A stretch of 64,000 bases of DNA from Candidatus Magasanikiibacteriota bacterium (lineage in GTDB: Bacteria > Patescibacteriota > Patescibacteriia > Magasanikbacterales > UBA922), in the NCBI GenBank assembly GCA_049287025.1, contig JBAQFA010000009.1:24802-88801 (forward strand). Reading direction: 5' to 3'. Below, piece after piece: positions 723 to 30,254 of the stretch (positions are counted from its first letter, which is position 1; every line of letters starts with the position of its first letter). Position numbers and translations under genes: made by a program. Below the pieces are notes generated by a model, which worked only from the letters and a program-made list of their open reading frames with translations, did no database searches and was not told where the DNA came from.

Positions 723-1865
723 TTATTGACGAATAGGCATCACAATATACAAATACTCGTCTTTACCTTTGGGAGAAAACAAACATGGGGCGTCGCCACT
801 ATTTACTTTAAATTCTATCTCATCAGTTTCCATATGTTGGAGACCATCCAAAACATAGCGATGATTAAGTAAAATTGAATTTTCTTCGCCTTTTAGTTCA
901 ACATCAATTTCTGATGAGTGTTCACCAGTCTGAGTACTAGTAGATGAAACTCCGATTGTCCCCTCACCCACATTTAGATCAAATGAAACTGCGTTTACCC
1001 CCATAGTTGTAAAAAGACTAGCGGTTTTAATTTTATTTGTCATTTGGGCCACGGGAAAAACGGCTGTGGTTTTGAATTCACCAGGAATAATCTGGGCATA
1101 GTCTGGATATTTGCCATCAATCAATCGGGAAGTCATTTCAAAATCATCAAAGCGCAAAGCAATTTGATTTTCTGTGAGCCACAATCTTATTTTTGTTTCT
1201 CCACTCTTGGCTTTGGAAATTGTTATGAGTCTAATCATCTCATAAACTGTCCGAGCTGGTACAATAATTTTCATTTCATCACTTCCTTGTTCAATATTTA
1301 ATTTTTTTTCAGCCAAACGATAAGAATCAGTGGCTGCCATTACCAAACCTTTGTACCTATCAGCAAATAATCCAAAATAAACTCCAGCCAATTCTGGTCT
1401 GATTTCATTTTTGGCTGTGGCCACCACTACTTGACCCAAAGAATTTTTAAAATCTTCGGCATCCAAAACATAGGCATGTTGTTCTTCAATTTCTGGCATC
1501 ACTGGATATTCGTCAGCTGGTACGCCTTTTATTTTTGTGCTAGAAGAACCACAAGTAATTTTTATTTCATTTTCTACTAGTTCCATTTCTACTTGTTCGT
1601 CTGGCAAAAGATGAACAAAGTCAGTGAGAGTTTTGGCTGGCACCGTAAAACTGCCTGTATTTTCTACTTTGGCGCGCAAATTAACTTGAATGGCCATTTC
1701 CAAATTGGTTGTCATTAATTTTACTCCAGTGTCGTTTACCTGGATTAAAATATTTAACAAGATTGGTAAGTTAACTTGCTTACCCGCGACTCCACTAACC
1801 AAGTCTAGAGCATGTGATAAATTTTCTTTAGTACAAGTAAATTTCATATATTTGGACTTATGCAC
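723..1865 (-). CDS. dnaN: DNA polymerase III beta sliding clamp
   Basis: 380 aa; MKFTCTKENLSHALDLVSGVAGKQVNLPILLNILIQV... The track start is GTG at 1865. The ATG at 1847 (MKFTCT...) is the more likely start. Confidence 0.9.
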   Translation of the reverse strand: MHKSKYMKFTCTKENLSHALDLVSGVAGKQVNLPILLNILIQVNDTGVKLMTTNLEMAIQVNLRAKVENTGSFTVPAKTLTDFVHLLPDEQVEMELVENEIKITCGSSSTKIKGVPADEYPVMPEIEEQHAYVLDAEDFKNSLGQVVVATAKNEIRPELAGVYFGLFADRYKGLVMAATDSYRLAEKKLNIEQGSDEMKIIVPARTVYEMIRLITISKAKSGETKIRLWLTENQIALRFDDFEMTSRLIDGKYPDYAQIIPGEFKTTAVFPVAQMTNKIKTASLFTTMGVNAVSFDLNVGEGTIGVSSTSTQTGEHSSEIDVELKGEENSILLNHRYVLDGLQHMETDEIEFKVNSGDAPCLFSPKGKDEYLYIVMPIRQ

Positions 1866-1940
1866 CTCACGTGCATTTTTTAAAATCCCCTCTGTTGTTT
1901 GTTATATATTTATATATTAAATTGATAATAGTAATAGGTG

Positions 1941-2126
1941 TTGTGGATAGTGTGCAAAAGTCGTTTTTTATTTTAGTTTTAGATAAATTTTGGTGTTAAT
2001 AATTTCTTAATAATTTTTTGTCTTCTTGTTGATAATTTTGGTTTTTATTTTTGCCCTGTTTATAACTCATTAATTATGAACAGTTTAAATTTTTATAATT
2101 ATATTCTTATCCCAAGCTTTATCCAC
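1941..2126. promoter_or_regulatory. DnaA-box-like 9-mers in dnaA-dnaN intergenic region
   Basis: TTGTGGATAG at 1941-1950 and TTATCCACC at 2118-2126, each 8/9 match to TTATCCACA. Confidence 0.35.
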
Positions 2127-2144
2127 CGTATTTGCAATTCTAGT

Positions 2145-3527
2145 TTAGATATTATCTACGTATAATCTTTGTTTGATCGCTTCAATTTCTTGTTTTAGTT
2201 TGGCGTCATTTTCAATCTCGGTTTTTATTTTGGTATGAGCGTGCATGGCTGTAGTGTGGTCGCGTCCGCCGAGTTCATTACCAATCGCCGGGTAAGACAT
2301 TTTTAATTCTTCACGTAGTAAGAACATAATAATTTGTCTGGGATTGGAAAGTCTTTTTTCTCGGCTCTTACCAGCAATATCATCAATCGCCACGTCATAA
2401 AATTCTGATACCACACTAGTTAACTCTTTTGGAGTAAGAGAGCGTTTCATACTTTGCGCTTCAAAACTTGATAAGACAGATTTTACGCTTTCTTTAGTTG
2501 GTTCAGTATTTTTTAATTCATGAAAAGCAATAATTTTATTTAGCGCGCCTTCTAGTTCCCGGATATTACTTTGGACAGTGGCCGCGATTAAATTTATCAG
2601 TTCATCGGACAAATTATATTTTTTCTCCTGAGCTTTTGATTTCAAAATGGCTGATCTCGTTTCCAAATCTGGCGCTGCGATATCTGCAATCATCCCCCAT
2701 TCAAATCTAGAGCGTAAACGATCTTCCAAAGCTGGGATGGCTTTTGGTGGGCGATCAGAAGTAAGCACGACTTGTTTGCCTTGTTGATGTAGTTCGTTGA
2801 AAGTGTGAAAAAATTCCTCCTGAGTTTGTTCTTTGCCACCAATGAATTGAATGTCGTCAATCAAGAGTAAATCAACATTGCGATAGCGATCTTTAAATTC
2901 TTTGGCTCGGCCTTCTTTTACTGAAGTGACAAATTCATTAGTAAATTTTTCTGAAGAAACATAGAGAATTTTTGTTTGCGGATTATTTTCTAGCATTTTG
3001 TGGCCAATCGCTTGCAGAAGATGAGTCTTGCCTAATCCGACCCCACCATAGATAAATAATGGGTTGTAGGCTTCTCCTGGTCGGTTAGCAGAGGCTTGGG
3101 CAGCAGCATGAGCGAGTTCATTGCCCTTACCAACAATAAAAGTGTCAAAAGTATATTTTATATTTAGACCAAATTTACTACCCAAAGATTGATTTTTTGG
3201 CGCCGAATAAATTGGCGTGGCTGCACTAGATACATTTGGTTCAGTGGACATGGTACATTCTTTTTCTTCAATCAATTTGGAATTTTCTACTTTATATTCT
3301 ACTTTTTTTACTGGCTTACCTGTCACTCGTTCCAAAATTTTTATAATTTCTGGATGATATTTTTTTTCCAGCCAGCTCTTGGTAAAAGTATTAGGCACAC
3401 AAATAATTACCTGACCAACTTCATATTGGCCAATACCAGTATTGCGGAACCAAGTAGTAAAATTAGCTTTGGAAACTTTTAATTCAAATTCAGCGAGAAC
3501 AGCTTGCCAGATTTCGTGATTTGTCAT
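2145..3527 (-). CDS. dnaA: Chromosomal replication initiator DnaA
   Basis: 460 aa; Walker A GGVGLGKTHLL; DnaA N-terminus MTNHEIWQAVLAEFE; C-terminal HTH domain. Confidence 0.95.
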   Translation of the reverse strand: MTNHEIWQAVLAEFELKVSKANFTTWFRNTGIGQYEVGQVIICVPNTFTKSWLEKKYHPEIIKILERVTGKPVKKVEYKVENSKLIEEKECTMSTEPNVSSAATPIYSAPKNQSLGSKFGLNIKYTFDTFIVGKGNELAHAAAQASANRPGEAYNPLFIYGGVGLGKTHLLQAIGHKMLENNPQTKILYVSSEKFTNEFVTSVKEGRAKEFKDRYRNVDLLLIDDIQFIGGKEQTQEEFFHTFNELHQQGKQVVLTSDRPPKAIPALEDRLRSRFEWGMIADIAAPDLETRSAILKSKAQEKKYNLSDELINLIAATVQSNIRELEGALNKIIAFHELKNTEPTKESVKSVLSSFEAQSMKRSLTPKELTSVVSEFYDVAIDDIAGKSREKRLSNPRQIIMFLLREELKMSYPAIGNELGGRDHTTAMHAHTKIKTEIENDAKLKQEIEAIKQRLYVDNI

Positions 3528-5997: not shown

Positions 5998-6471
5998 TTG
6001 TATATGAAAAATAAAATCCACCTAACAATTTATATTGTAATCGGTGGATTTTTTTTATTGTTGGATCAGTTGTTAAAATATTTGGCGCGGACTAATTCTG
6101 ATTTTAGTTTTTATCTTTGGAAAAATTGGTTGGGCTGGGAATATTTCCCCAATCCTGGCATTGCTTTTTCTTTACCCGTACCAAATTGGTTAGTAGTTAT
6201 TTTTACGCCAATAATTTTATTAGGATTATTTATTTGGATAAGACGAACACATAACACATATCACATATCACATATCACAAGACAGTTATCACTATTTTTT
6301 ATTATTGCTGGGGCGGTTTCAAATTACATTGATCGCGTATTATTCGGTGTCACTATAGATTATATTCGTATTCTTACTGGGGTAATAAATTTGGCGGATG
6401 TGATGATTGTGGTGGGGGTAGGGTTGTTATTGTTGGATGAAAGATTGAAGAAAATTAATATTAAACTTTAA
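5998..6471 (+). CDS. lspA: Lipoprotein signal peptidase II
   Basis: NPGIAFSLP and SNYIDRV...IDYIRI motifs, 4 TM segments. Contains an in-frame (ACATATCAC)x3 microsatellite encoding HNTYHISHIT. Confidence 0.75.
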   Translation: MYMKNKIHLTIYIVIGGFFLLLDQLLKYLARTNSDFSFYLWKNWLGWEYFPNPGIAFSLPVPNWLVVIFTPIILLGLFIWIRRTHNTYHISHITRQLSLFFIIAGAVSNYIDRVLFGVTIDYIRILTGVINLADVMIVVGVGLLLLDERLKKINIKL

Positions 6472-6475
6472 TTAT

Positions 6476-7015
6476 ATGATAGAAAATAGTAAATTATTTT
6501 TTTTGATTTTAATTCTGTTTTTAGTTGGGGTTGGCTGCGTAAGTGTTCAGCAGAATACAATAGGTGAAGGTTCTGGTGGTAAAATGGATAACGAGATTGC
6601 AGAGACTAATGCACAGCTAGGAGGAAAAGAAGAGAGTGTTTCTTCTCTTCAAGATTATTCGTATGGTTGTAAAAAACGTTTAGGTGATAATAGTCATATG
6701 AATGAACAAACAGGAAAATGTGAGTGTGATGATGGACATGTCTTCAGTATCGAAGAACCTATTAAGTGTATATCAGCGAATGATTATTGCATATTTTTGA
6801 AAGGAAAGAATTCTATTTCTAATCTAAATGGAGAAAAATATGATTGTATGTGTAAGGATGGTTATAAGATAGATTTAAGTTTGTCACCGAAGTGTATTAT
6901 AGACTGTTCCCCAATAAATGGTGTGATTGCCACAGAAGATTTGTGTGCTTGTCCTAATAATTATGACTATGACTATGGTGTAAGCAAATGTATGCCGATT
7001 GATGATTTAAAATAG
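6476..7015 (+). CDS. Secreted cysteine-rich protein (signal peptide, 17 Cys), unknown function
   Basis: N-terminal hydrophobic LFFLILILFLVGVGC; Cys-rich CxC/CxxC spacing; directly downstream of lspA. Confidence 0.5.
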   Translation: MIENSKLFFLILILFLVGVGCVSVQQNTIGEGSGGKMDNEIAETNAQLGGKEESVSSLQDYSYGCKKRLGDNSHMNEQTGKCECDDGHVFSIEEPIKCISANDYCIFLKGKNSISNLNGEKYDCMCKDGYKIDLSLSPKCIIDCSPINGVIATEDLCACPNNYDYDYGVSKCMPIDDLK

Positions 7016-7040
7016 GTTAATTGAGAAATTAAAAAATAAA

Positions 7041-7064
7041 ATCACCTAGGTTCAGGTGATTTTT
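7041..7064 (+). terminator. Rho-independent terminator
   Basis: atcacct-aggttc-aggtgat + tttt. Confidence 0.6.
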
Positions 7065-7155
7065 GTTATCTGATATCTGCACAATGTGGTATAATAAATG
7101 TAATTTTTAATGTGGGCGAACGCAACTTGAAAAGGGATTCTTCGCTTCGCTCAGA

Positions 7156-8688
7156 ATGACAGACGATATGTTTACCAAAATAAATTCCGCGGCCACTCTG
7201 GGTTTGGAATGTGAACCAATAATTGTTGAAACAGATATTTCCCCGACTTTTCAAGGTTTCCAGATTATTGGGTTACCTGATATGGCGATCCAGGAAGCTA
7301 AAGAAAGAATTAGAACAGTATGGCGAAACAGTGGTCTTACTTTTCCCAATGGCCATCGCATTTTAGTTAATTTGGCGCCAGCGGATGTTCGCAAAGAAGG
7401 CTCGGCGTTTGATTTACCCATTGCCGTGGGTATGTTTACAGCCAAAGAAGGATTAGAAATAAATTTATCTGATTGTCTTTTTATTGGGGAATTGGCTCTA
7501 GATGGGAGTCTGCGTCATACCAATGGAATACTTCCTTTAGCAATTCACGCCAAAGATCGGGGTTATAAAAAAATCTTTGTGCCAGCGGTGAATGCGCGTG
7601 AAGCATCTCTCATAAAAGAAATTGAAGTTTATCCGGTAGAAAATTTTCAACAAATGATTGCGCATTTATTAGGTAATGAATTGATAATTAAACAAGAACC
7701 ACAACCTTTGACTGATTTATTTGTAGTTAGAGAAATAGAAATGGATATGGCTTATATCAAAGGCCAGGAATTTGCCAAGCGCGCTTTGGAAGTGGCCGCG
7801 AGTGGAGCACACAATATTTTATTAAATGGTCCGCCAGGGTCAGGCAAAACTTTATTGGCTAGAAGTTTACCATCAATTTTACCGCCCATGACAGAAGAGG
7901 AAGCCATTGAAGTGACCAAGATTTATTCGGTAGCGGGATTGTTGCCCCATGATCAGCCATTAATTACTGAACGGCCGTTTCGTTCACCGCATCATAGTGC
8001 GAGCGCCATGTCTCTGGTTGGTGGAGGAAAATTTCCTCGGCCAGGAGAAATTTCTTTGGCTCACCGCGGAGTTTTATTTCTTGATGAGTTTACCGAGTTT
8101 CCTAGAATTGTTTTGGAAAATTTACGCCAGCCGTTAGAAGATGGTTTTGTGACCATTGCTCGCGTGCAAAGTACGATTTCTTATCCCGCGCAATTTACTT
8201 TGGTGGCCTCACAAAATCCTTGTCCATGTGGTTATGCCACAGATCCAGATAAGCGGTGTATATGTAGCCCAATGCAAGTAGCCAATTATCAAAAGAAAAT
8301 TAGTGGGCCAATGCTTGATCGAATTGATCTTCATGTAGAAGTACCGCGCGTGGAATTTGAAAAGTTATCCAAAGATAGTTTAGCCGAGTCTTCGGCAGAA
8401 ATTCGCCTGCGAGTAGAAGAAGCCCGTGATCGACAAACTGTAAGGTTTAAAAATTGTTCAGCCAAGACAAATAGTGAAATGAAAAATAAAGAAATAAAAG
8501 AATTTTGTAAATTGGATGAACAATCACTTGATTTATTGCGTCAAGCAGTTCAGCATATGCATTTGTCAGCGCGGAGTTATCATCGGATTTTAAAATTAGC
8601 GCGAACGATTGCTGACCTGTCTAAAAGTGATAATATTTTACAAACGCATGTGGCCGAGGCTCTGCAATATCGGGCAAAAGTTGATTGA
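7156..8688 (+). CDS. comM: YifB/ComM family Mg-chelatase-like AAA+ ATPase
   Basis: 510 aa; Walker A GPPGSGKT; ChlI-like domain; C-terminal ComM region. Confidence 0.85.
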   Translation: MTDDMFTKINSAATLGLECEPIIVETDISPTFQGFQIIGLPDMAIQEAKERIRTVWRNSGLTFPNGHRILVNLAPADVRKEGSAFDLPIAVGMFTAKEGLEINLSDCLFIGELALDGSLRHTNGILPLAIHAKDRGYKKIFVPAVNAREASLIKEIEVYPVENFQQMIAHLLGNELIIKQEPQPLTDLFVVREIEMDMAYIKGQEFAKRALEVAASGAHNILLNGPPGSGKTLLARSLPSILPPMTEEEAIEVTKIYSVAGLLPHDQPLITERPFRSPHHSASAMSLVGGGKFPRPGEISLAHRGVLFLDEFTEFPRIVLENLRQPLEDGFVTIARVQSTISYPAQFTLVASQNPCPCGYATDPDKRCICSPMQVANYQKKISGPMLDRIDLHVEVPRVEFEKLSKDSLAESSAEIRLRVEEARDRQTVRFKNCSAKTNSEMKNKEIKEFCKLDEQSLDLLRQAVQHMHLSARSYHRILKLARTIADLSKSDNILQTHVAEALQYRAKVD

Positions 8689-8723
8689 CACATATCATGA
8701 ATCACATAACACATAACAAAAAC

Positions 8724-8750
8724 ACCAACTTGTCAGTTGGTGTTTGTTTG
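8724..8750. terminator. Bidirectional terminator between comM (+) and M23 peptidase (-)
   Basis: caccaact-tgtc-agttggtg with T-rich tracts on both sides. Confidence 0.6.
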
Positions 8751-8757
8751 TAAATTA

Positions 8758-10122
8758 TTATTTTACATACTTCAATGGGTTCATTCTACTGCCGTTAATT
8801 CTCACTTCAAAGTGGATATGTGGACCAGTGGATCGGCCAGTAGAGCCCATGAGAGCAATGGTTTGTCCTTGAACAACTTCTTCACCAACAGACACAAACA
8901 ATCTAGAAGCATGTGCATAAACAGTTTGTATTCCACCGCCATTGTTTAGAATAATATAACAACCATAACCACTATTGTATCCGCATTGTGATTTTATAAC
9001 TGTACCAGCTTTGGTAGCATATAATGGTGTACCGACTGGACCAGCAATATCTAGACCAGTATGGCGCCAACTGTAGTATTGAGTAATTCTTCTGACTGAA
9101 GTTGGCCATAAGTAACCAGAGCCAATAGCCGTAGCTGAAGCAGGTGGAGCAGAAATATTACTCAATTGATTATATTGGCGAGTAGGTTGGGTGTAGGTAT
9201 AAACTGGTTGAGGCATTTTTCCTCCAGGAATCATAATTTCCTCACCAATTACCAAGTCAGATCCATCATCTTTTAATTTATTAAATTCTATAATTTTATC
9301 TGCTTCTGCACTGTAAGTTTTGGCAATTTTTGACAGAGTATCACCTTTTTTAATTTTATGAATAAGACCAGAAGTGGGTAAAATTTTTAATTTATCTCCC
9401 GGACGAATGTAAGAGCGGAGAGTTAGACTGTTTGACCATAATAAAGTATTGACATCAATATTATATTTTTCTGCGATAGTGCCAATTGTATCACCAGTTT
9501 CTACATTGTGAATAATAATTTCTTCTCGGCCAGTGTCATTACTACTATTTGTAATATTAGCGCCGGTAATGATATTTGGTTTGGTAATAGCTGTTCCACC
9601 CAAAGCAATACTCGCGATGTTAGTGGGTTGATTGGTAGTCTGTCCAGAAAGAGTTCGGGGTTGAATTTGAATAGCACCTTGTTGCCAGGAATTTTCCACT
9701 GGCTTGATTGTGACATTGGCAGAATCTATTGTTATTTCGGTCAAATCAAAATCTTGTTCTCCTGGTCCAACAATTTTATAAAGAATGGTGTCTCTGCCAG
9801 GGATTTTGGTGGTGTCACGAGCATAGAGACGAGTATGAGGAATAGCGATCACAAAAATAATAATAAAGAGAATAATTTGTAAAGTACCGCGTTTGCCAAA
9901 GAGCTCTATGGCTTTGCTGTTCCAAGGCATTTTTAAAATGCCCGCGTGTTTTTCTAGTTGAAATTTGGCTTTGTAAAAACGAAAGCCAATGGTATTACGA
10001 AACCAATTTAATATATAAAACAGACCATTGCCATTAATTCTTAAAAGCCAAAATAGGGCTTTTTTCAAATATGTTAGGCCACGTAGTATATAGAGGAGAA
10101 TTTTATAGCCAAGTCTTTGCAT
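8758..10122 (-). CDS. LysM-domain M23 family metallopeptidase (peptidoglycan endopeptidase)
   Basis: Two LysM-like segments (DTIGTIAEKYNIDVNTLLWSN; DTLSKIAKTY) and C-terminal M23 motifs HxxxD...HIHFEV. True start may be the internal M (MPWNSKAIE..., about 9927). Confidence 0.8.
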   Translation of the reverse strand: MQRLGYKILLYILRGLTYLKKALFWLLRINGNGLFYILNWFRNTIGFRFYKAKFQLEKHAGILKMPWNSKAIELFGKRGTLQIILFIIIFVIAIPHTRLYARDTTKIPGRDTILYKIVGPGEQDFDLTEITIDSANVTIKPVENSWQQGAIQIQPRTLSGQTTNQPTNIASIALGGTAITKPNIITGANITNSSNDTGREEIIIHNVETGDTIGTIAEKYNIDVNTLLWSNSLTLRSYIRPGDKLKILPTSGLIHKIKKGDTLSKIAKTYSAEADKIIEFNKLKDDGSDLVIGEEIMIPGGKMPQPVYTYTQPTRQYNQLSNISAPPASATAIGSGYLWPTSVRRITQYYSWRHTGLDIAGPVGTPLYATKAGTVIKSQCGYNSGYGCYIILNNGGGIQTVYAHASRLFVSVGEEVVQGQTIALMGSTGRSTGPHIHFEVRINGSRMNPLKYVK

Positions 10123-10374
10123 AAAGTAGACAATATTATGCCTATAAAATGTGATTTTGTCAATTTTTTTATCGTTGTATAAGTGATTATTTTTGGCTAA
10201 TATAAGCTATTTTTTATTATTTTTAAGCTCGGGATAACTTTTTTAAAATATTGTTTTGGTTAGCTTTTTTTGGCTGTAGCAAAATTGACTTGTTTTGAAT
10301 TATTATATATAATAATGGCGCATAAAAAAGACGACAGAAAACGTCTTTATAATATTTATTCTTAATTATTTTCT

Positions 10375-12363
10375 ATGATTACGACATTGCTCGTACTTTT
10401 GCCAGCCTTGGCTGCCATACTTTATGGTGGAATTTTAATTGGCTGGATCAACAAACAGCCGGCCGGTTCAGAAAGAATGCAGGCCATTGCTAAGGCTATC
10501 CAAGAAGGCGCCAAAGCTTATCTCGGCAGACAATACAAGACTATTGCCATGGTGGCCGTAGTAGTATTTGTTTTGCTTTGGATTTTCTTAGGATTCAAAA
10601 CCGGTTTAGGTTTTGTGGTTGGGGCAACTTTTTCGGGAATTGCTGGTTATCTTGGTATGACTATTTCCGTCAAAGCCAATGTAAGGACAGCCGAAGCAGC
10701 CAAAAAAGGTTTTAAAGAAGCTTTGGACGTAGCCGTAAAAGGTGGTTCAATTACCGGCTTGTTAGTCGTGGGTTTGGGTTTGTTTGGAGTAGGAGCATTT
10801 TATTTAATTTTCAAAGATACTAATTCTTTAATTGGTTTAGCTTTTGGTGGTTCTCTAATTTCTATTTTTGCTCGTATTGGTGGCGGTATTTTTACCAAAG
10901 CCGCTGATGTTGGCGCTGACTTGGTCGGTAAAGTAGAAAAAGGTATTCCTGAAGATGATCCTCGCAATCCAGCGGTGATTGCTGATAATGTTGGCGACAA
11001 CGTCGGTGATTGTGCAGGTATGGCTGCTGACTTATTTGAAACTTATGCTGTGACAGCTGTAGCTGCTATGGTGCTTGGTGCCCTTACTTTTAAAGGTAAT
11101 GAAGAAGCAATTATTTTCCCATTAATCTTGGGTGGAATTTCTATTATTGGTTCAATCATCGGTACATTCTTTATTAGATTAGGCAAGACAAAAAATGTCA
11201 TGAATGCGCTTTATAAGGGTTTAGTTGTGTCGGGAGTTTTATCAATGATTGGTTTTTATTTTGCTAGTACAGTTTATAGTAAATATTTAAATTTAACAGT
11301 TAGTCAATTATTCTGGAGCGGTTTTATTGGTTTAGTTTTAACTGGTCTTATGGTTTGGATTACAGAGTATTATACCTCTACCAAATATGGTCCAGTAAAA
11401 AGTATTGCCAAAGCTTCTGAGACTGGTCATGGTACCAATGTGATTGCTGGTTTGGCTGTATCCATGAAAGCGACTGCTTTGCCAGTTCTATTCATTGCGG
11501 CTGCTATGCTTGGAGCTTATAGTTTGGCTGGTCTCTATGGTGTAGCTATTGCGGCTATGGCCATGTTGTCTATGACAGGAATTGTAGTGACAATTGATGC
11601 CTATGGTCCAATTACTGACAATGCTGGTGGTATTGCGGAAATGGCTGAGCTCGGTGATGAAGTGAGAGCAGTCACTGATCCATTAGATGCCGTTGGAAAT
11701 ACTACCAAAGCTGTGACAAAAGGTTATGCGATTGCCTCAGCTGCTCTGGCCGCTCTAGTTTTATTTGCCGATTACACTCACAAATTGGCTGAGAATGGTA
11801 TTTCTACAGTTTTTAGAATTGATGATCCAAAAGTTTTGGTTGGTTTGTTTATTGGTGGCTTACTGCCATATTTATTTGGTTCATTTTTAATGGAATCAGT
11901 TGGCAAGGTGGCGGGTAAAGTAGTAGAAGAAGTTCGTCGCCAGTTCAAAGAAATTGCGGGAATAATGGAAGGCAATGCCAAACCAGATTATGCCAAGTGT
12001 GTGGACATCGTAACCAAAGGAGCAATCGGTCAAATGGTTTTACCAGCTTTGATTCCAATAGTAGCACCGATTTTAGTTGGCCTAATTTTAGGACCAGCCG
12101 CTCTTGGTGGTTTATTGGTAGGTACAATCGTGACTGGTTTGTTTGTCGCAATTTCCATGACAGCGGGTGGTGGTGCTTGGGACAATGCCAAAAAATATAT
12201 TGAAAATGGTAATTACGGTGGCAAAGGATCTTTTGCTCACCAAGCGGCTGTTACAGGTGACACAGTTGGTGATCCATACAAAGATACTGCTGGTCCAGCC
12301 ATTAATCCGATGATTAAGGTGGCGAATATAGTTGCATTGTTGATTGTGGGGTTGTTGAAATAG
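10375..12363 (+). CDS. hppA: Membrane-bound ion-translocating pyrophosphatase
   Basis: 662 aa; DNVGDNVGD and [14 protein letters not shown] signatures of V-type PPases. Confidence 0.9.
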
Positions 12364-12414
12364 ACACGGATTATACGGAATTAAAGGATTATACGGAAAA
12401 TAAGAAAAATTAAA

Positions 12415-12448
12415 ACACTCTGCTAAATTGGCAGGGTGTTTTTTTTGT
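12415..12448 (+). terminator. Rho-independent terminator after hppA
   Basis: cactctgc-taaattg-gcagggtg + ttttttttg. Confidence 0.6.
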
Positions 12449-12574
12449 TTAACACTTTTTAAATCGTAAACTTGACTTATCATATAAAATATAGTATAAA
12501 TGTATGTCCGATAGACTTGTTGTCTGTCGTTTTGGTATATAAGGCAACTTTGCTTTGTTGTTGTGTGTGCTTGA

Positions 12575-13588
12575 GTGAACAACCATAATCCTTGGATGGG
12601 AGGTGAGACAGGGGAAATGGCAAAGGATCTTTCGGAGAGAAAATTTCGAAGCACCGTGCGGTATGTGCGACGTCTATTGGGGGGTGGGACTGGTATTGTG
12701 ACTGCTCAACAGCTTCAGAAGGCTGGAAAACGAGCTCGCGGTCCTTTCTTTGACCCCAGAGACCATGGTCTGGTTCGTCCGTTCTTGGAGCGTGGAGCCG
12801 AAGAAGGACTCTGGGTGCTTGAGAACGGCGGTGGTCGGGCTGTCGTACCTGATGGTGTGTGGGAACAGTGGGATAGTCGTGGCGAGAGACGGCGTGAGGA
12901 ACGTCAGTCACAAGTTACGGCTCAAGCAGGAACCCGGCCAGCTTCAGTGCTGGCATCACTAGAGGAGGTCTCTATGACCGACGGTACGAAGAAGGGGGTG
13001 GGCGTATCCCCGAAAAATCCTATCTGGGTTTGGCTTCGGGCCAAGAAGGGTAGGTTGGGAGAGCTCATCGAGCTGTTCCAGGGGGTCCATGATGGTGCTC
13101 CGGTTCTCGCCAAGAAGGGTGGGGCTTTGAGTTTCCATTTTGCCCGCCCGCACCTAGTTCGGGGCCTGCAGAAGCTCGGGATGGAGCAGATCGACGATGG
13201 GTCAAAGATCCTGGCCACGGTCTTCTCCTACCTCGCCACGCCTGAGCAGGGGGTATTCGAGCGTGTGGGTTCTGGTGGGTACCCCCGCTACAAGCTCGGG
13301 CCGAAAGGGCAGAAGCTCTTGACCGAGGTCAGGAGCAGGGGCTCTGAGCCCATGCCACCGCCCGTTCCGTCCACGTCACCGACCGCTGCCCCCAGCCCGG
13401 GTGACCCGTTCGCCGAGGAGGAGGCCGCTCTCGTGGCCAAGCTCGAGGCGGTCCGTGCCAAACGCCGGCGCTTCATCGTGGTCGAGGACCTCGTGGTCAA
13501 GGCCATGAAGAAGGCCGGCATCGAGGGGACAGAGCAAGTTGAGTTCCTCAAGGCGCTCGTCAAAAAGCTCGGGGGTTCCTCCGAGTAG
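12575..13588 (+). CDS. GC-rich (about 62% GC) hypothetical protein, apparently horizontally acquired (cassette E)
   Basis: 337-codon open frame in 65% GC DNA is unlikely by chance. The sequence is protein-like (…EAALVAKLEAVRAKRRRFIVVEDLVVKAMKKAGIEG…). Likely start is the ATG at 12617 with RBS gggagg. Confidence 0.5.
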   Translation: MNNHNPWMGGETGEMAKDLSERKFRSTVRYVRRLLGGGTGIVTAQQLQKAGKRARGPFFDPRDHGLVRPFLERGAEEGLWVLENGGGRAVVPDGVWEQWDSRGERRREERQSQVTAQAGTRPASVLASLEEVSMTDGTKKGVGVSPKNPIWVWLRAKKGRLGELIELFQGVHDGAPVLAKKGGALSFHFARPHLVRGLQKLGMEQIDDGSKILATVFSYLATPEQGVFERVGSGGYPRYKLGPKGQKLLTEVRSRGSEPMPPPVPSTSPTAAPSPGDPFAEEEAALVAKLEAVRAKRRRFIVVEDLVVKAMKKAGIEGTEQVEFLKALVKKLGGSSE

Positions 13589-13795
13589 TCAAATCTCTAG
13601 GCAGTCTTGACTGCCTACGACATCGTTCTTTCAACCTGTCCCGTTCGGGACACCAAAGTCAGGGAAGTGAGTATCACTCCACATCGGAGCGTACCTTCCC
13701 TGGCGCTCCATCAAAAGAACATCTCTAGTTAGGTGTTTTTTTGTTTAACATTGATTTTACAGATTTTAAAAAAGATTTTATTTTATAAAAATTAT

Positions 13796-14560
13796 TTATT
13801 TCAAACTGTTCCACAACATCTCCCAAACAAGACGTTGGTTATCAGCATTGGCTTGGTCTTCAATAATGACTAGGATCATACTCTCCCAAGAAACAGTCAT
13901 TACTCGATTGCCATAAATAACAGTGTGACTTTTGAATGATTTACCTTCGGGTAAAAATTTTACTTCACGTAATTCTTCTGTGGCACGTCTAGCTTCTAAA
14001 ATACCGGATTTGGATTTTTCCACAATTATTTTTGCTTTAACCCCTAATGAAATTCGTTCGTTGGTTAATTTTTTATACTCTTCTGGAAAAGTTGTTAATA
14101 GTTTTTCTGATGAACCATATACCAAATTTTCTTTTAGATTTACTTTGTGTCTAATCCTGTCTAGATAAGCATTCCATACATTTTTTCTACCCTCAAAATA
14201 TAATACTTTTGGTTTGTTGGCACCTTTGTTTTGTAAAGCCTCAAGTTCTGGTATTAGATCAGCAAAAAGTTGCTCTTTGTAACGAAGTGAATCCAAAAAT
14301 TTTTCTGGTTCCATGGCCACAAAATATCTTTTTCTGCCTTTGTTAACCACATTCATTAAGCCTTTAAGAATTAATTTTTCTATAATGTCGTATGTAGTTA
14401 CTCTATGTATGCCGGCTTTTTGAGCAATTGTCTGGACTGAAGCATGACCAAGCTCTAAGGTGGCTAAGTAAATTTCGGCCTCTTTGGCATCTAGACCAAA
14501 TTGTTGTAATTGATTAGGTAAAATCATAAAATGTTGTAGGAAAAGTTCTACATTTTTCAT
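13796..14560 (-). CDS. TrmB-family wHTH transcriptional regulator (paralog E)
   Basis: N-terminus EAEIYLATLELGHASVQTIAQKAGIHRVTTYDIIEKLILKGL matches the TrmB HTH. Paralogous to ORFs at 28374, 30255, 31929 and 48975. Confidence 0.7.
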   Translation of the reverse strand: MKNVELFLQHFMILPNQLQQFGLDAKEAEIYLATLELGHASVQTIAQKAGIHRVTTYDIIEKLILKGLMNVVNKGRKRYFVAMEPEKFLDSLRYKEQLFADLIPELEALQNKGANKPKVLYFEGRKNVWNAYLDRIRHKVNLKENLVYGSSEKLLTTFPEEYKKLTNERISLGVKAKIIVEKSKSGILEARRATEELREVKFLPEGKSFKSHTVIYGNRVMTVSWESMILVIIEDQANADNQRLVWEMLWNSLK

Positions 14561-14639
14561 TATATCTATTTACAATAAATAAGTCAATCTGCTAATCTAA
14601 TGTAGTATATTATCGACATAATTAATTTAAAATAATACT

Positions 14640-15674
14640 ATGAGAAAAAAATATCTAATTTGGGCAGTTGTGGCAGTGGCCATAATAATGGTTGGCTATT
14701 TAACAATTAGTAGAATACAACAAAATTCAAATCAGTCCGTCAGCTCTAACCAAGAAAAAATACTAGATGTAAAATTAGGTTTAAGTATTCAGCCATCAAA
14801 TGGTTTGTTGTGGGTAGCAGTAGATAAAAATTTTTTTCTAGAAGAAGGTTTGAATGTACAAGTGCAAGAATTTGCCGCTGGAAAATTGGCTTTGCAAGCT
14901 ATGCTTGGTGGATCAGTGGATTTAACTACCCCGGCTGAATTTCCTGTGGTTTTGGCTAGCGTGAATGGAGAAAAACTTTCTATTCTAACCCAAGTCAATG
15001 AAACCAGCGGAGGGTTTCCTATGATTTTTCGCAAAGACAATGAGGAAACATTTAATACTTCTACTTATTTTATTAAAAAAAGAAAAATTGGCACGTCAGT
15101 TGGTGGTGGGCCAGAATATTTTACTCAAGATTTTTTTAATAAGTATCAGATTAAACCCAGCCAATATGAAATTGTCGGAATGAAACCTGAAGATTTACCT
15201 ATTGCTTTGGTAAATGGTAGTATAGATGCTATGGCAATTTTTGAACCCTTTACTCATTTTGCGATTGAACGCGCGGGAGCAGAAAATTTATTTGTTATTT
15301 ATGACGAAGATTTATATTCCGAAACCATTGTTTTAACAGGTAAAACTGATTGGGTCAAGACTCATAATGAAGAAGTGAACAGATTCATTCGGGCTTTAAA
15401 AAAGTCTTATGATTTTATTAAAAGTAATCCTGATGAGGCCATGACTTCAGTAGCACTTCATACCAAATTGGATTTGGCAACTGTAATAAGCATCTGGCCA
15501 ACTTTTACTTATGAACTTGGTTTACAGAAAAAATTAATTGCCTCTATGGAGAATGAAGCTAAGTGGGCTAGTGAAACAGGCAAAACAAAAAATGAGATAA
15601 GTGGCATAGATTTTCAGCAAATTTTATTTCCTGAACCTTTACAAGCATTGCTGCCAGGTTTGGTGAATTTATGA
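14640..15674 (+). CDS. ABC transporter substrate-binding protein (NMT1/SsuA/TauA-like)
   Basis: Signal-anchor, periplasmic-binding-protein fold; first gene of a three-gene ABC operon. Confidence 0.7.
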   Translation: MRKKYLIWAVVAVAIIMVGYLTISRIQQNSNQSVSSNQEKILDVKLGLSIQPSNGLLWVAVDKNFFLEEGLNVQVQEFAAGKLALQAMLGGSVDLTTPAEFPVVLASVNGEKLSILTQVNETSGGFPMIFRKDNEETFNTSTYFIKKRKIGTSVGGGPEYFTQDFFNKYQIKPSQYEIVGMKPEDLPIALVNGSIDAMAIFEPFTHFAIERAGAENLFVIYDEDLYSETIVLTGKTDWVKTHNEEVNRFIRALKKSYDFIKSNPDEAMTSVALHTKLDLATVISIWPTFTYELGLQKKLIASMENEAKWASETGKTKNEISGIDFQQILFPEPLQALLPGLVNL

Positions 15675-16462
15675 AATTAAAGAAAATATTTTTATACATT
15701 TTACCCACTTTCATTTTTTTACTGTTTTGGGAGTGGGTCTCACGCAAAGGGCCTGTCAATCAGGTCCTTTTTCCTCCACCATCAGAAGTTGTCATTTCTT
15801 GGTTGAATTTAGTAAAAGATAATATTCTTTTACCAGATATTGAAGTAAGTTTGAAGCGTTTATTTTTTGGTTTGGTTATTGGTAGTACAGTTGCCATTAT
15901 TACTGGTTTATTAACTGGCAGAATAAAAAAAATTCATAATATTATCACACCTTTTATTCAAGCCATACGACCTTTGCCAGCCGTGGCCGTTATTCCTTTA
16001 GTAATTGTTTGGCTGGGTATTGGAGACACGGCAAAAATATTCACGATTGCCTTTGGATCATTTTTTCCTATTTGGTTAAATACTCATGTGGGTGCTGAAC
16101 AAATACCAAGGATATTTTTGTGGTCAGCCAGATTGTTAAATCTCTCCCCACTTAAACTATTTACGAAAGTGATTTTTCCAGCGGCGTTGCCCTTTATTTT
16201 AACAGGTGTTCGTACTGGGGCAGCCACAGCTTATGCTATGGTGTTTGTTTCAGAGTTGGCCGGTGCTTCCAGTGGTATTGGCTATAGAGTTGCCGTAGCT
16301 CAATTGGTTTATCGTACTGATCAGATGATGGCTGCTTTAGTTACCTTGGGAATTTTAGGAGCTTTAACTGATTTATTAATTGTTTTTATAAGCAAAAAAT
16401 TAACCCCTTGGATTAAAAATCATGAACATGAGCCAAATTATCATCAAAAATTTATCAGTTAA
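15671..16462 (+). CDS. ABC transporter permease (SsuC/TauC-like)
   Basis: 6 TM segments, BPD-transport inner-membrane-component signature region; overlaps neighbours. Confidence 0.75.
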   Translation: MKLKKIFLYILPTFIFLLFWEWVSRKGPVNQVLFPPPSEVVISWLNLVKDNILLPDIEVSLKRLFFGLVIGSTVAIITGLLTGRIKKIHNIITPFIQAIRPLPAVAVIPLVIVWLGIGDTAKIFTIAFGSFFPIWLNTHVGAEQIPRIFLWSARLLNLSPLKLFTKVIFPAALPFILTGVRTGAATAYAMVFVSELAGASSGIGYRVAVAQLVYRTDQMMAALVTLGILGALTDLLIVFISKKLTPWIKNHEHEPNYHQKFIS

Positions 16463-17123
16463 ACGCGGAGAAAATTTTATTTTAAAAAATCTTGATTTGG
16501 CAATTCAAAAGGGTGAATTTGTGGCAATAGTTGGCAAGTCTGGCAGTGGCAAAACTACTTTTCTTCACACTTTGGCTGATTTTTTGCCTTTTTCTGGAGA
16601 TATTATTATCCCCTCTAATTTGGGAATGGTTTTTCAAGAGTATAGTATTTTTCCTTGGTTAACTGTGGAAAAAAATATTTCGCTTGGTTTGGATAAATAT
16701 CATCCTGATAAAAGAAAAGAAATAGTTGAAGAACATCTGGTTTTAACAGAACTGGAACACAAGCGTGATTCCTACTCAGCTGAACTTTCTGGTGGACAAA
16801 TTCAACGAGTAGCCATTGCCCGTTCACTAGCGCCCGATCCCGAGGTGTTATTAATGGATGAGCCATATAGTGCCTTAGATGCTCACACTAGATATAAAAT
16901 GCAAGAATGGCTTTTGGAAGTGTGGCAAAAGAAACAAAAAACCATAGTTTTTGTCACTCACAATATTGAGGAGGCGATATTTTTGGCTGATCGTATATTG
17001 GTTTTGAACCAGGGTAATTTTGTTCATGAATTTATTGTTCCATTTGTTAGGCCCAGGGTAGATGATATGAGATTTACAATGGAATTCAATTTACTAAATC
17101 AAAGGATTAAGTCTTTTTTGTAA
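16422..17123 (+). CDS. ABC transporter ATP-binding protein
   Basis: Walker A GKSGSGKTT, signature LSGGQIQRVAIARSL, Walker B LLMDEP. Confidence 0.85.
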   Translation: MNMSQIIIKNLSVKRGENFILKNLDLAIQKGEFVAIVGKSGSGKTTFLHTLADFLPFSGDIIIPSNLGMVFQEYSIFPWLTVEKNISLGLDKYHPDKRKEIVEEHLVLTELEHKRDSYSAELSGGQIQRVAIARSLAPDPEVLLMDEPYSALDAHTRYKMQEWLLEVWQKKQKTIVFVTHNIEEAIFLADRILVLNQGNFVHEFIVPFVRPRVDDMRFTMEFNLLNQRIKSFL

Positions 17124-17225
17124 TAAATGTAAAATGACATAAATAAACATTCTTATAAATGGGGTGTTTTTTTGTTTTCAAAAATGTGCTAGAATATAGG
17201 AGATAATTTTTATTAATCATTATAT

Positions 17226-19670
17226 ATGGGAAGACGAGGACGAGGGAGACAATCAAATTTAGACCCGGTTTTATCCCGGGGCATTTTAGCCATTGTAGTC
17301 GCGATTGCCGCCATTATTTTTGGGCTTAGTTTTTTTGGCAAAGCGGGCGCAGTGGGAATCATGCTTGATGAATATGTGTTAAGTTTTTTGTTTGGATCAA
17401 TCCGCTATACTGTACCATTTGTTATGTTGGTGCTTGCTTGGTATTTGGTGCGCGACACAGAATATAATTATCATCCTACTCACGGCATTGGCGCGATTTT
17501 ATTTTTTTTGAGTCTGGCCAGTTTTATGCATATCAAGTTTGAACCAAGTGAAATGTGGACGATGTCCCTGGATGGTTTTGGTGGTGGTATATTTGGTATG
17601 TTTGCTTGGCCACTCAAAATGTATTTGGGTGCGATTGCTGGTAAAGTAATTTTGGTCGGTATGGTGGCTGTTGGTTTCTTTTTAATTTTTAATACTTCGT
17701 TTGCGCATTTTGTTTTGATCAACAAAAAGATTTTTGCCGGCTTGGGCTGGGTTGGTAAATCAATTTTAAAATTATTTGGTTTATTTGTAGAAAAAAATAA
17801 AAAACATTTACAGGTTAACGGTGATTATGATGAAGATGGTGAAGATGTGGATGATTTGGCAGATAATGAAGACGAAGGAAACTCTTCGGCTAACGCTCAG
17901 AGTGAAGAAGAAAATATTGATGAAGATGAAAATACTAAAAAAGTTTTTGCCAAAAAAATTATTGGTTCAACTGATGATAATTCTTCTGATGAAAATAATT
18001 CTTCGGAAGACGCAAAGAGTGAAGAGGATGGTGTAGCAGCTTGGCAGAGAAATGTGGTAATAAAAAATTTACCTAATTATGATCTGTTAAATAGTAAGCG
18101 AAGTAAGCCAACGAGTGGAGACATCAAAGCTAATGCCCAAACTATTCATGATACTTTTCAAGAATTTAATATTGGCGTGGAAATGGGCGAAGTACGCGTG
18201 GGTCCGACCGTCACTCAGTATTCTCTCAAACCAGACAAAGGTATCAAACTAACTCGCATTACAACTTTGTCCAATGATTTATCTTTGGCTCTGGCCGCTC
18301 ATCCGATTAGAATTGAAGCACCAATTCCAGGCAAATCTTTAGTCGGGATTGAAGTGCCCAATTTTAAAGCTGCCATGGTGACACTCAAAGAACTTTTGGA
18401 AAGTAAAGAATTTGTAACTCGCGAACACAACTTAATGATTGCCCTGGGTAAAGATGTTTCAGGTAAAGTTTGGTTTGCGGATTTGCCCCGTATGCCTCAC
18501 CTGTTAGTAGCTGGTGCGACTGGTTCTGGTAAAACAGTATGTATCAATACAATTATCATGAGTTTACTTTATCAAAATACAGCCGAGACATTGCGTTTGA
18601 TCATGGTTGATCCAAAACGGGTAGAGTTAACACCATACAATGGTATTCCTCATTTACTTACCCCAGTCATTACCAATGTCCAAAAAACTGTTAACGCTCT
18701 CAAATGGTGTATTGGAGAAATGGATCGTCGGTTTGAATTATTTTCCAAATCCCATAGCCGTGATATTGGTTCATACAACAGCAAACATCCCAATGAAAAA
18801 ATACCTCATATTGTGTTTGTAATAGATGAACTAGCTGACTTAATGGCCTCCGCTGCGTCCGAAGTGGAAGCCGGGATTATTAGAATTGCCCAGATGGCTC
18901 GGGCAGTTGGAATTCACCTCATTGTCGCAACTCAACGCCCGTCAGTGGACATTATCACTGGTCTTATGAAGGCTAACATTCCAGCTAGAATTGCTTTTTC
19001 GGTAGCGTCTATTATTGATTCACGGACAATTTTGGATTGCCCTGGTGCAGACAAATTACTTGGCCGAGGTGATATGTTATTTTTAACTGCCGAGTTATCC
19101 AAGCCAGTGCGTGTTCAAGGAGCATTTGTTTCAGAACAAGAAGTTCATAATGTTGCGGATTATCTAAAAGGCGATGGTAAGGTAGAATATGATGAATCGA
19201 TTGTAGAAAAACCAACAGCCGGAACCATGAATATGTTTGGTGGTAGTTCTGATGACCAAGATCCTTTGTTTGAAGAATCCAGACAAGCCATTATTCAAGC
19301 TGGTAAAGCGAGTGCTTCATTTTTACAACGTCGTTTAAAAATTGGTTATGCTCGAGCCGCCAGAATTCTAGATGAATTAGAAGCAGCGGGAATTATTGGT
19401 CCAGGTGATGGCGCCAAACCACGAGAGATTTTGACCACCGAAGTTGAGGTGGAAAATAGTGATATGGGTATGGGACAAAAATTTAATGTTTTTGGTGGTA
19501 GTGAAGAAATCGTTGAAGAAACTAATAGTGATGAAGAGGTAGTTGAAGAAGAAAACAATCCAGATGAAGAAATTTTAGAAGATGGTGTTGAAAGTGAAGA
19601 AGAGAATGAAAATGATGAAGACATTGATGAGAACGAGGAAAAAAAGGAAGATGAAGTGGGGCTGTATTAA
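17226..19670 (+). CDS. ftsK: DNA translocase FtsK/SpoIIIE
   Basis: N-terminal TM segments, acidic linker, motor domain with VAGATGSGKTV and gamma-domain wHTH; acidic C-terminal tail. Confidence 0.9.
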   Translation: MGRRGRGRQSNLDPVLSRGILAIVVAIAAIIFGLSFFGKAGAVGIMLDEYVLSFLFGSIRYTVPFVMLVLAWYLVRDTEYNYHPTHGIGAILFFLSLASFMHIKFEPSEMWTMSLDGFGGGIFGMFAWPLKMYLGAIAGKVILVGMVAVGFFLIFNTSFAHFVLINKKIFAGLGWVGKSILKLFGLFVEKNKKHLQVNGDYDEDGEDVDDLADNEDEGNSSANAQSEEENIDEDENTKKVFAKKIIGSTDDNSSDENNSSEDAKSEEDGVAAWQRNVVIKNLPNYDLLNSKRSKPTSGDIKANAQTIHDTFQEFNIGVEMGEVRVGPTVTQYSLKPDKGIKLTRITTLSNDLSLALAAHPIRIEAPIPGKSLVGIEVPNFKAAMVTLKELLESKEFVTREHNLMIALGKDVSGKVWFADLPRMPHLLVAGATGSGKTVCINTIIMSLLYQNTAETLRLIMVDPKRVELTPYNGIPHLLTPVITNVQKTVNALKWCIGEMDRRFELFSKSHSRDIGSYNSKHPNEKIPHIVFVIDELADLMASAASEVEAGIIRIAQMARAVGIHLIVATQRPSVDIITGLMKANIPARIAFSVASIIDSRTILDCPGADKLLGRGDMLFLTAELSKPVRVQGAFVSEQEVHNVADYLKGDGKVEYDESIVEKPTAGTMNMFGGSSDDQDPLFEESRQAIIQAGKASASFLQRRLKIGYARAARILDELEAAGIIGPGDGAKPREILTTEVEVENSDMGMGQKFNVFGGSEEIVEETNSDEEVVEEENNPDEEILEDGVESEEENENDEDIDENEEKKEDEVGLY

Positions 19671-29123: not shown

Positions 29124-29296
29124 AGCAAAAATATATTAAAGTGGTGTGAAGCCACACCACGTGGTGGTATTTGCCACTCTTTATATATTATATATAATGC
29201 CTTGTTACTTTGCAAGCCGCTGCTGTGCATAAAAGCTAGATGGTGAGCGGGTAATAAGGGGTTCTTTGATAAAACAATTTGAGAAGCGAGGGACAA

Positions 29297-29479
29297 ATGG
29301 AAACTGGAGAAAGGCAAGATGAAGTTACTTGTTTGAAGAAAGAGTTGGAACATGACAAAGATGAGATATATTATTTGCGTTTGGCTATCCTTAATTTGAA
29401 TAGGAAAAAGGAGTATGTCAGAATGCAAAGGATGTTCCGTGGTGGAGAAGCTGTTCTCGACATGTGGGCGCGCTATTAA
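29297..29479 (+). CDS. Small GC-rich ORF (60 aa) in leader of cassette A
   Basis: ATG at 29297 preceded by gagggacaa; METGERQDEVTCLKKELEHDKDEIYYLRL...; weak. Confidence 0.25.
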   Translation: METGERQDEVTCLKKELEHDKDEIYYLRLAILNLNRKKEYVRMQRMFRGGEAVLDMWARY

Positions 29480-29515
29480 CACGGGAGAGGGCTGAAAAAG
29501 CCTAAGGAGGACCTC

Positions 29516-30103: not shown

Positions 30104-30175
30104 TCGTTCTTTTATAGGGGGGAGGACTTACTTGAGACTAGTCATCTCACGTGGACCGGCACGTAAAAATCCGGG

Positions 30176-30235: not shown

Positions 30236-30254
30236 ACTTTGGGTAATTTATGAT

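Follow-up and report, generated by a model that had tools for sequence, protein, structure and literature searches.

The stretch of DNA analysed here (64,000 nucleotides (nt) of contig JBAQFA010000009.1, referred to below as the window) raises the question of how a GC-rich gene came to lie in a low-GC chromosome segment, between two convergent genes that are separated by only a short terminator in a relative. According to NCBI, the source organism is a Candidatus Magasanikiibacteriota metagenome-assembled genome (MAG) of the candidate phyla radiation (CPR)/Patescibacteria. The window has a mean GC content of 36% and the replication origin is nearby, with dnaA and dnaN at positions 723–3527. 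The GC-rich island in question is located between hppA, encoding an H+-translocating pyrophosphatase (10375–12363, + strand), and a TrmB-family gene, paralog E (trmB-E; 13796–14560, − strand). The interpretation argued below, to which we assign a probability of roughly 0.7, is that window positions 12400–13773 constitute a horizontally acquired, self-contained, GC-rich single-gene cassette, residing inside the bidirectional terminator of hppA and trmB-E.

Comparative analysis revealed a relative in which this site appears to be empty. A TrmB-E ortholog (P0005, 94% identical) is encoded on contigs L087–L090 (~85% DNA identity to the window), where the order FtsK, ABC ATPase, permease, NMT1, TrmB-E, hppA and M23/LysM peptidase is the same as in window 8758–19670. 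In these contigs the stop codons of the convergent trmB-E and hppA genes are 86 nt apart and there is no GC-rich open reading frame (ORF) between them. Blastn alignment is colinear over 11.6 kb (84–86% identity), with homology breaking exactly at window positions 12399 and 13774, and a gapped alignment gave identical breakpoints. Between these points the window contains a specific segment of 1,374 nt (12400–13773, + strand), compared to ~29 nt in the relative, which form the stem-loop of one bidirectional terminator, AAAAATCCGTTCATCAATTTGGTGAGCGGATTTTATTTTT. The native left flank, hppA (PF03030, 905 bits), shows ~84% DNA identity and is colinear with L087 10819–12807. The spacer that follows the hppA stop codon (12364–12399, + strand), which contains a tandem GGATTATACGGAA x2, is the final stretch in common with the empty site and is identical to the relative at 36/36 positions (100%). 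On the right, homology resumes with GATTTTATTTTATAAAAATTATTTAT (13774–13795, + strand; 21/22 positions identical, 95%), an ancestral T-tail that belonged to the former bidirectional terminator. Since a colinear relative carries the empty site, insertion at the hppA/TrmB-E junction is strongly supported by sequence comparison, and this part of an earlier sequence-only reading of the locus, which had proposed an insertion that copied its target terminator, is upheld.

Both window junctions are 100% identical, base for base, in three other assemblies, L001, L004 and L005 (matching window 12582–18236, 12567–14818 and 11778–13902, respectively), and the arrangement is therefore real rather than an assembly artefact. 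One of these contigs (L001, JBAQOB010000104.1, from another NCBI assembly that represents the same population) starts at window position 12582, inside the left part of the insert; a contig break of this kind is expected at a change of composition or coverage, or at a polymorphic junction. Searches for further empty sites were negative: with hppA as an anchor among species-representative genomes, the best relatives (71–77% amino acid (aa) identity) keep the M23-hppA pair without the downstream genes, and the empty-site DNA pattern was not found in JGI metagenomes.

Two features of the junctions deserve mention. The 36 nt of the left spacer (12364–12399) are fully retained in the relative despite a difference of 33% at synonymous sites, which implies constraint; the tandem GGATTATACGGAA x2 may thus represent an unknown cis element. 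At the right junction (13751–13784, tGATTTTAcaGATTTTAaaaaaGATTTTAtttt), the motif GATTTTA is present three times, compared to once in the empty site, and this triplication may be a slippage or repair scar of the insertion.

The ORF carried by the insert (12575(GTG)/12617(ATG)–13588, + strand) has 337 or 323 codons and a GC content of 60.1–60.5%, so the long GC-rich ORF of 337 codons described in the sequence-only reading was borne out. The value of about 62% GC that had been given for the surrounding 1.27 kb applies to the conserved core of the gene (12974–13588, 62.9%) but not to the whole bracketed stretch (12455–13735, 56.2%). The GC contents of the first, second and third codon positions (GC1, GC2 and GC3) are 0.68, 0.48 and 0.66 for the whole ORF and 0.65, 0.45 and 0.79 for the core, compared to a GC3 of 0.25–0.30 in native genes and ~0.27 in the flanking genes. 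At the base composition of the island, 337 codons would remain open by chance with a probability of ~5 × 10⁻⁶; for the N-terminal 119 codons (GC3 of 0.44) the chance of accidental openness is 0.8%. Along the ORF (12617–13588) the GC content climbs in the 5′ to 3′ direction from 52% to 74% (100-nt windows).

As judged from its sequence, the insert is organized as a complete transcription unit, in which a promoter-like site and a leader hairpin with a U-run precede the ORF, and a 3′ untranslated region (UTR) with several hairpins and a terminator follow it. The candidate promoter, sigma-70-like and read directly from the sequence, is TTGACT-17 nt-TATAAA (12472–12500, + strand); it was not called by a consensus scan, position 6 of the −10 box being A. 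Within 12455–12620 (TGTCCGATAG ... GTCGTTTTG), a predicted leader hairpin of 8 pairs is followed by TTTTGG (12509–12535, + strand); this structure is terminator-like and could be an attenuator or operator. A plausible Shine-Dalgarno sequence serves the start at 12617, and a second one (GGAGG) is placed 5 nt upstream of an internal ATG at 12974. The 3′ UTR (13589–13714, + strand) is highly structured, with a predicted folding energy of −51.6 kcal/mol (z = −5.06; 0/200 shuffled sequences as stable). It comprises three stable hairpins (13598–13617, 13637–13652 and 13658–13704), succeeded by a weak terminal hairpin (13715–13750), in agreement with the GC-rich 3′ UTR hairpin noticed earlier. Between this last hairpin and the ancestral T-tail lies a junction filler, TGATTTTACAGATTTTAAAAAA (13751–13773, + strand), which is absent from the relative. 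Rfam searches at permissive thresholds with this island (island 1), the GC-rich islands 2–4 of the window and the Parcubacteria island described below returned generic terminator-like noise only.

The homology search of the encoded protein recommended in the sequence-only reading showed it to be a near-ORFan with two homologs, both in GC-rich DNA. A word-indexed search of 5.8 × 10⁹ clusters matched only the protein itself, and an exhaustive HMMER search (1.84 × 10⁹ representatives of ~15 × 10⁹ proteins) identified P0002 and P0003, each 37–39% identical over the C-terminal ~200 aa. A profile search of proteins found no homologs beyond these two, and the profile had no relatives in viral contigs. 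P0003 is an extracytoplasmic function (ECF) sigma factor (Sigma70_r2 and r4_2) from a Parcubacteria MAG, with the conserved domain in its C-terminal extension. P0002 is encoded on a contig of 778 nt (63% GC). Its frame continues without a stop codon up to the start of the contig and is similar to the P0003 linker, so that P0002 is probably a fragment of a longer protein.

The gene for P0003 lies in a 3.9-kb island of 58–60% GC within a genome of 36–40% GC (L003). This island consists of three tandem units, the first containing the sigma fusion and the others an MTAP-like phosphorylase and a 215-aa ORF of unknown function; their GC3 values are 0.63–0.74, compared to ~0.3 in that genome. Each unit ends with a GC hairpin followed by ...AACATSAG-loop-CTSGTGTTTTTTTGT, and the 3′ end of the window insert aligns with these terminators. 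The similarity extends to the 5′ end, where the −35 box and the A/T-rich −10 region of the candidate promoter align with unit 1 of L003, and the leader blocks TGTCCGAYAG ... GTCGTTTTG are common to both; the aligned region reads CTTGAC ... TGTCCGAYAG ... GACTT ... GTCGTTTTG (~70% identity over ~80 nt). The leader alignment score of 21 was reached by 32/4,474 background windows (p ~0.007). We read this pattern as probable homology of the whole transcription unit between the window cassette and unit 1 of L003.

Other features of these cassettes were also noted. The P0003 ORF (L003 6322–8202) likewise climbs in GC3 from 0.53 to 0.82 in the 5′ to 3′ direction, and in both homologous ORFs the least GC-rich parts are the non-homologous N-terminal ones. 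An AGGAGG Shine-Dalgarno sequence with a mini-ORF of 7–8 codons directly follows the main stop codon in several GC cassettes (L003 8217–8240 and ~9383–9406; L002 691–717), before a GC hairpin and terminator. The predicted peptides (MARSPPM*, MAREPPK* and MRARAPPV*) share an Arg/Pro-Pro motif and occur in cassettes with unrelated main ORFs; the window cassette has no such mini-ORF. A search of metagenomes with a degenerate leader pattern gave a single match (L086), which falls within a TPR gene on a contig of low GC content and was rejected as a chance occurrence.

The island is bracketed by a direct repeat, which was the basis for the earlier description of duplicated terminator-like flanks. 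This repeat is real, although the coordinates originally given for it were one base off at each end. The exact 15-mer TTTTTTTGTTTAACA occurs twice, at 12440–12454 and 13736–13750, and extends to GGTG-T8/T7-GTTTAACA (19/20 positions, with one T indel). The left copy (12435–12454) forms part of the strong intrinsic terminator located after hppA (12412–12454, + strand), in which the terminator scan identified a 14-pair hairpin (12412–12442) followed by T8 and GTTTAACA. The right copy (13732–13750) forms part of the weak terminal terminator of the insert, AACAUCU-loop-AGGUGUU followed by T7 and GTTTAACA (13715–13750, + strand); its 7-pair hairpin, with one G-U pair, is present in the centroid fold yet was not called by the terminator scan.

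Such bracketing might be expected if a mobile element had duplicated 15–20 nt of the hppA terminator, either as a target-site duplication or as an attL/attR core, in which case both copies would be target-derived. The repeat is uncommon enough to lend this idea some weight. Its local-alignment score of 17 was reached by 1/285 and 3/816 background T-tract contexts (p ~0.004), at least 15 nt were shared by 20/42,731 T-tract pairs of the empirical background, and within the window GTTTAACA directly follows a T7–8 run only at these two sites. An analogous GC island, on L094, is moreover bracketed by a 64-nt direct repeat (88% identity) containing a terminator. However, the empty site reads ...GGTGAGCGGATTTTATTTTTAAAAATT and contains neither GTTTAACA nor the duplicated 15-mer (the relative being 15% diverged), and both copies are part of the 1,374 nt that only the window has; copying of the target terminator is therefore not supported. 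The right copy fits the terminators of the L003 cassettes better (scores of 24 and 20) than that of hppA (17), and a score of 24 was reached by 0/285 and 0/816 background contexts. Given the probable whole-unit homology with L003, the right-hand "duplicate" would be chiefly the cassette's own terminator. A third occurrence of the motif, GGTGT(7–8)GTT at 17163, belongs to the terminator tail GGTGTTTTTTTGTTT (17163–17177, + strand) downstream of the ABC operon described below and also has 15 nt in common with the right copy; since this tail is kept in the island-free relative, it represents a native terminator type. In addition, a repeat search found no significant inverted repeats at the insert ends, and the insert encodes no recombinase. 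We consider the target-duplication scenario unlikely, and the 15-nt flank repeat may mainly be a property of the cassette itself, or of this family of terminators, rather than a copy of the target.

The hairpin of the left terminator is ~65% identical to that of the relative, which equals the neutral expectation (67% identity at third codon positions of hppA); the remaining intergenic regions of the block show ~83%. The window terminator at 12412–12446 could be either a diverged ortholog of the hairpin in the relative or a structure that arrived with the insert.

The part of the protein shared with its homologs is a 204-aa core (12974–13588, + strand; NCBI call WA057_05110). The start codon of the gene is disputed, as PGAP calls a protein of 204 aa, while Prodigal-type calls (Logan) give 330 aa. 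A model based on the three-sequence alignment predicts, with good confidence, a winged-helix domain (residues ~10–122), a Pro-rich linker and a C-terminal helical tail. The modelled core shows the H-H-H-beta-beta wing topology and matches solved winged-helix domains, at 6–22% identity. Single-sequence AlphaFold2 modelling of the full-length protein was uninformative (mean confidence score, pLDDT, of 50). No homolog was found for the N-terminal 119 aa, which show no similarity to the middle part of P0003. Among PDB sequences, the profile matched only designer PPR and alpha-solenoid repeats; these matches included no single stretch that passed alone, and were regarded as spurious. From the predicted fold we infer a DNA-binding protein with a role in transcription, which may act on the conserved leader of its own gene; its involvement in transcription is supported, by association, by the sigma-factor fusion in P0003.

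ECF sigma factors carrying C-terminal extensions are among the closest known systems. P0003, the one homolog with a full genomic context, carries the domain as such an extension, but the window protein lacks a sigma-70 region (regions 2 and 4 are present only in P0003) and would be a stand-alone or differently extended form of the domain. It also differs from the winged helices of MarR, PadR, TubR and Cdc6/Orc1 in having no Pfam or NCBIfam membership and in its Pro-rich linker and helical tail.

The insert was compared with known types of mobile DNA. Searches of its ORF against Pfam (E ≤ 10), PHROG, PADLOC and NCBIfam gave no match, and neither a transposase or integrase domain nor a reverse transcriptase domain was detected. 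The insert lacks defining features of an insertion sequence (IS) or transposon, with no encoded transposase (Pfam, PHROG and NCBIfam, E ≤ 10), no significant terminal inverted repeats, and a bracketing 15-mer that is missing from the empty site. As an integrase-borne element it would require a tyrosine or serine recombinase, but its single ORF encodes a modelled winged helix. The 10 further window ORFs that were checked likewise included no recombinase, in a scan of the window that was not exhaustive.

Integron cassettes and clusters of attC sites lacking integrases (CALINs) resemble the L003 cassettes and islands 2–5 of the window in several respects, namely unrelated tandem ORFs in one orientation, a conserved structured 3′ module for each and the absence of a recombinase inside. 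The CPR cassettes differ in having their own promoter-like sites and in that their 3′ modules look like RNA hairpins with intrinsic terminators, not attC bulged hairpins. The boundary sequence GTTTAAC does not fit the GTTRRRY core of attC (R″/R′ cores RYYYAAC ... GTTRRRY), no inverse core was seen by eye in 13589–13750, and intI was not present among the genes checked. Group IIC introns are mobile elements that home to Rho-independent terminators (PMC4748821). The window insert likewise sits directly at an intrinsic terminator and, being flanked by convergent genes, does little harm there. It differs from these introns in carrying ordinary protein cargo without a reverse transcriptase ORF or group II ribozyme domain, and it gave no match to Rfam group II introns at the gathering threshold or at E ≤ 1.

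General horizontal gene transfer and genomic islands have been documented in Patescibacteria (PMC12455944), but cassettes of this kind do not appear in that paper. The window unit shares with small genomic islets or single-gene transfers in Patescibacteria a foreign composition, absence from a close relative and a streamlined CPR genome as host. It differs in its very small size, a single gene within 1.37 kb that is equipped with a promoter-like site, a leader and a terminator of its own, in the lack of an integrase or tRNA target, and in the GC-rich surroundings of its homologs (a short contig and, in another CPR lineage, a cassette array). By the defining features of these systems, the insert is not an IS, transposon, integrase-borne island, integron cassette or group IIC intron. 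It is best described as a small horizontally acquired islet; our literature searches yielded no account of single-gene GC-rich cassettes in which leader and terminator modules are conserved, of TrmB in CPR bacteria or of hammerheads in Patescibacteria.

In the mechanism that we propose, the cassette would have entered the terminator that served both hppA and trmB-E, which are convergent. Because it would bring its own terminator, all three transcription units (hppA, the cargo and trmB-E) would remain terminated and insulated after the insertion, and the leader hairpin with its U-run could have a regulatory role as an attenuator or operator. Since the insert encodes no recombinase, transposase or reverse transcriptase, any mobilization would have depended on functions supplied in trans or on recombination, whether homologous or illegitimate. 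Three routes of transfer can be envisaged: (i) site-specific or illegitimate recombination through the terminator tails, provided in trans; (ii) allelic replacement, by homologous recombination with DNA of a strain already carrying the cassette; and (iii) an RNA or circular intermediate, for which the hammerhead-like motifs of L094 are the sole hint.

The sequence-only reading had also described this locus as an instance of a recurrent pairing of TrmB genes with GC-rich cargo, and had placed trmB-E on the − strand, divergent from an SsuABC-like operon. The gene arrangement was confirmed. TrmB-E (PF01978, 50.2 bits, gathering cut-off of 25.6 bits; 50–59 bits for the other four window paralogs) is a short bacterial TrmB-like protein of 254 aa, 26–32% identical to the other four; it scores far below the cut-offs of the full-length TrmB/TrmBL1 equivalogs of NCBIfam (37.4 bits against 650, and 19.7 against 600). 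The divergent operon (14640–17123, + strand) encodes a binding protein, permease and ATPase. Judging from its matches (NMT1, PF09084, 87 bits; BPD_transp_1 and ABC_tran also recognized; TIGR01728 SsuA_fam, 91.2 bits against a cut-off of 163.5), the transporter is NMT1/SsuA-like.

The pairing itself holds in space but is not supported as a functional unit at this locus. All five window TrmB paralogs adjoin a GC island, and islands are also present 120–200 nt downstream of TrmB-E orthologs in L093 (without a flanking repeat) and L094/95. The spatial association of TrmB genes and GC islands is thus real, and terminators beside TrmB-family genes look like recurrent landing sites. A regulator-cargo module composed of TrmB-E and the GC-rich gene could explain this adjacency, but we regard it as quite improbable. 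In the island-free relative (L087) and two further lineages (L091 and L092), trmB-E and the NMT1-ABC operon, its ancestral partner, form a divergent pair without an island. In the window, trmB-E is convergent with the cargo and they share no promoter region. TrmB-E is distant from the other paralogs, and island 1 has no non-coding module in common with islands 2–5, which share several among themselves. The intergenic region 14561–14639, which had been proposed as a place to look for a TrmB-E operator, contains an AT-rich palindrome only and no convincing operator. The relative also differs from the window by other indels (window 6422–7167 and 8690–8755 versus L087 16699–18183 and 14424–15176), and carries an extra TrmB paralog (L087 17391–18137) and a 216-aa ORF, neither of which is in the window; this suggests that TrmB paralog content turns over quickly.

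The opposite polarity, in which the ORF was ancestral at this site and deleted in the L087 lineage, is very improbable. In its favor, the hppA/TrmB-E junction is available from a single lineage, and more distant TrmB-E orthologs have different neighbors, so the polarity is assigned without an outgroup. This scenario is difficult to reconcile with the core GC3 of 0.79 next to genes of ~0.27, or with a family that has only two other members across ~15 × 10⁹ proteins, one in a GC-rich island of another CPR lineage (P0003) and one on a short GC-rich contig (P0002). The hppA relatives mentioned above (71–77% aa identity) also keep M23-hppA without such a GC-rich ORF. Finally, an assembly chimera or contamination, or a structured non-coding RNA in place of a gene, is hardly credible despite the contig break at 12582 near the left edge and the highly structured 3′ UTR, given identical junctions in independent assemblies, codon-position periodicity, protein-level homologs and a confident fold that speak for coding, and no Rfam match even at E ≤ 1.

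Several points weigh against the acquisition of a complete cassette as set out above. The hppA/TrmB-E junction is known from one island-free relative, ~15% diverged, which makes the timing and breakpoints approximate, and deletion in that relative retains a small formal probability. The leader homology is modest (p ~0.007 against a real-sequence background), and the promoter candidate deviates from consensus. The proposed function rests on a fold predicted from a three-sequence alignment, while the first 119 codons lack homologs and are atypical in GC3, with PGAP and Prodigal disagreeing on the start.

Further GC-rich islands were observed in the window at 29124–30254, 31050–31928, 32733–34300 and 47477–48974 (islands 2–5), each in divergent or convergent orientation to a TrmB paralog. 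Their ORFs are unrelated and encode proteins of 195 aa (N-terminally hydrophobic and signal-peptide-like by eye), 148 and 123 aa (Cys-rich), 234 and 148 aa, and 99 aa (zinc-ribbon). A 3′ module of ~105 nt, ttctagttagtactaagtagata..aaaaaaccacgcc..ggttttttgttt, is 81% identical between 30150–30251 and 31820–31925; GCGTAGGCCGGCGCGTGAGCTCGGCA occurs at 31790, 33330, 34176 and 47677 (reverse complement), and islands 2–5 also contain a CCATCTTT...AAAGATGG hairpin. A 5′ leader, TTGTTCTGACGATCGAGGAT..CCTYGARAGTTGGAC, is present at 32910 and, as the reverse complement, at 48258 and 48680. Comparison of island 1 with islands 2–5 at the DNA level found nothing above the 9-mer TCTAGTTAG and no common non-coding module. 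This 9-mer is located in the loop of the terminal hairpin of island 1 (13723–13731) and begins the 3′ module that islands 2 and 3 have in common (30171–30179 and 31851–31859); its sharing could be due to chance, or it could be a remnant of a common module.

The L094 island (the same as that of L095) is located downstream of a TrmB-E ortholog, and is 2.7 kb long, with 63% GC and its own promoter and terminator. The 64-nt repeat that brackets it (6744–6807 and 9712–9775) contains a terminator-like hairpin, so that at this locus the idea of a duplicated terminator does hold. Its two minus-strand ORFs (7119–8132 and 8447–9511) are each followed by a sub-threshold Hammerhead_3 match (7015→6953, 27.4 bits; 8305→8238, 22.3 bits), ~1.29 kb apart; both candidates have a complete CUGAUGAG...CGAAA core and stems I–III. 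No hammerheads were found in the window island or in L003.

Taken together, the window cassette, the three L003 cassettes, islands 2–5 and the L094 island might belong to an undescribed class of non-autonomous GC-rich cassettes, circulating as whole units in Patescibacteria, settling at intrinsic terminators, often near TrmB genes, and moved in trans. We advance this only as a speculative proposal, with low confidence. RNA or circular intermediates are thinkable in this context because of the hammerhead cores that follow both L094 ORFs and the 64-nt repeat around them.

CPR/Patescibacteria have tiny, streamlined genomes, and the routes by which they gain genes are poorly understood. The hppA/TrmB-E locus provides a clean filled/empty pair for a one-gene alien cassette with its own expression signals and no mobility gene, and related cassettes in a second CPR lineage share its leader and terminator modules. 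It also adds a new and extremely rare winged-helix family (by predicted fold), linked to ECF sigma factors by gene fusion. If the pattern proves general, it would point to a dedicated gene-delivery system or a shared pool of high-GC genes in CPR bacteria, and intrinsic terminators between convergent genes would become recognizable landing sites for such cassettes.

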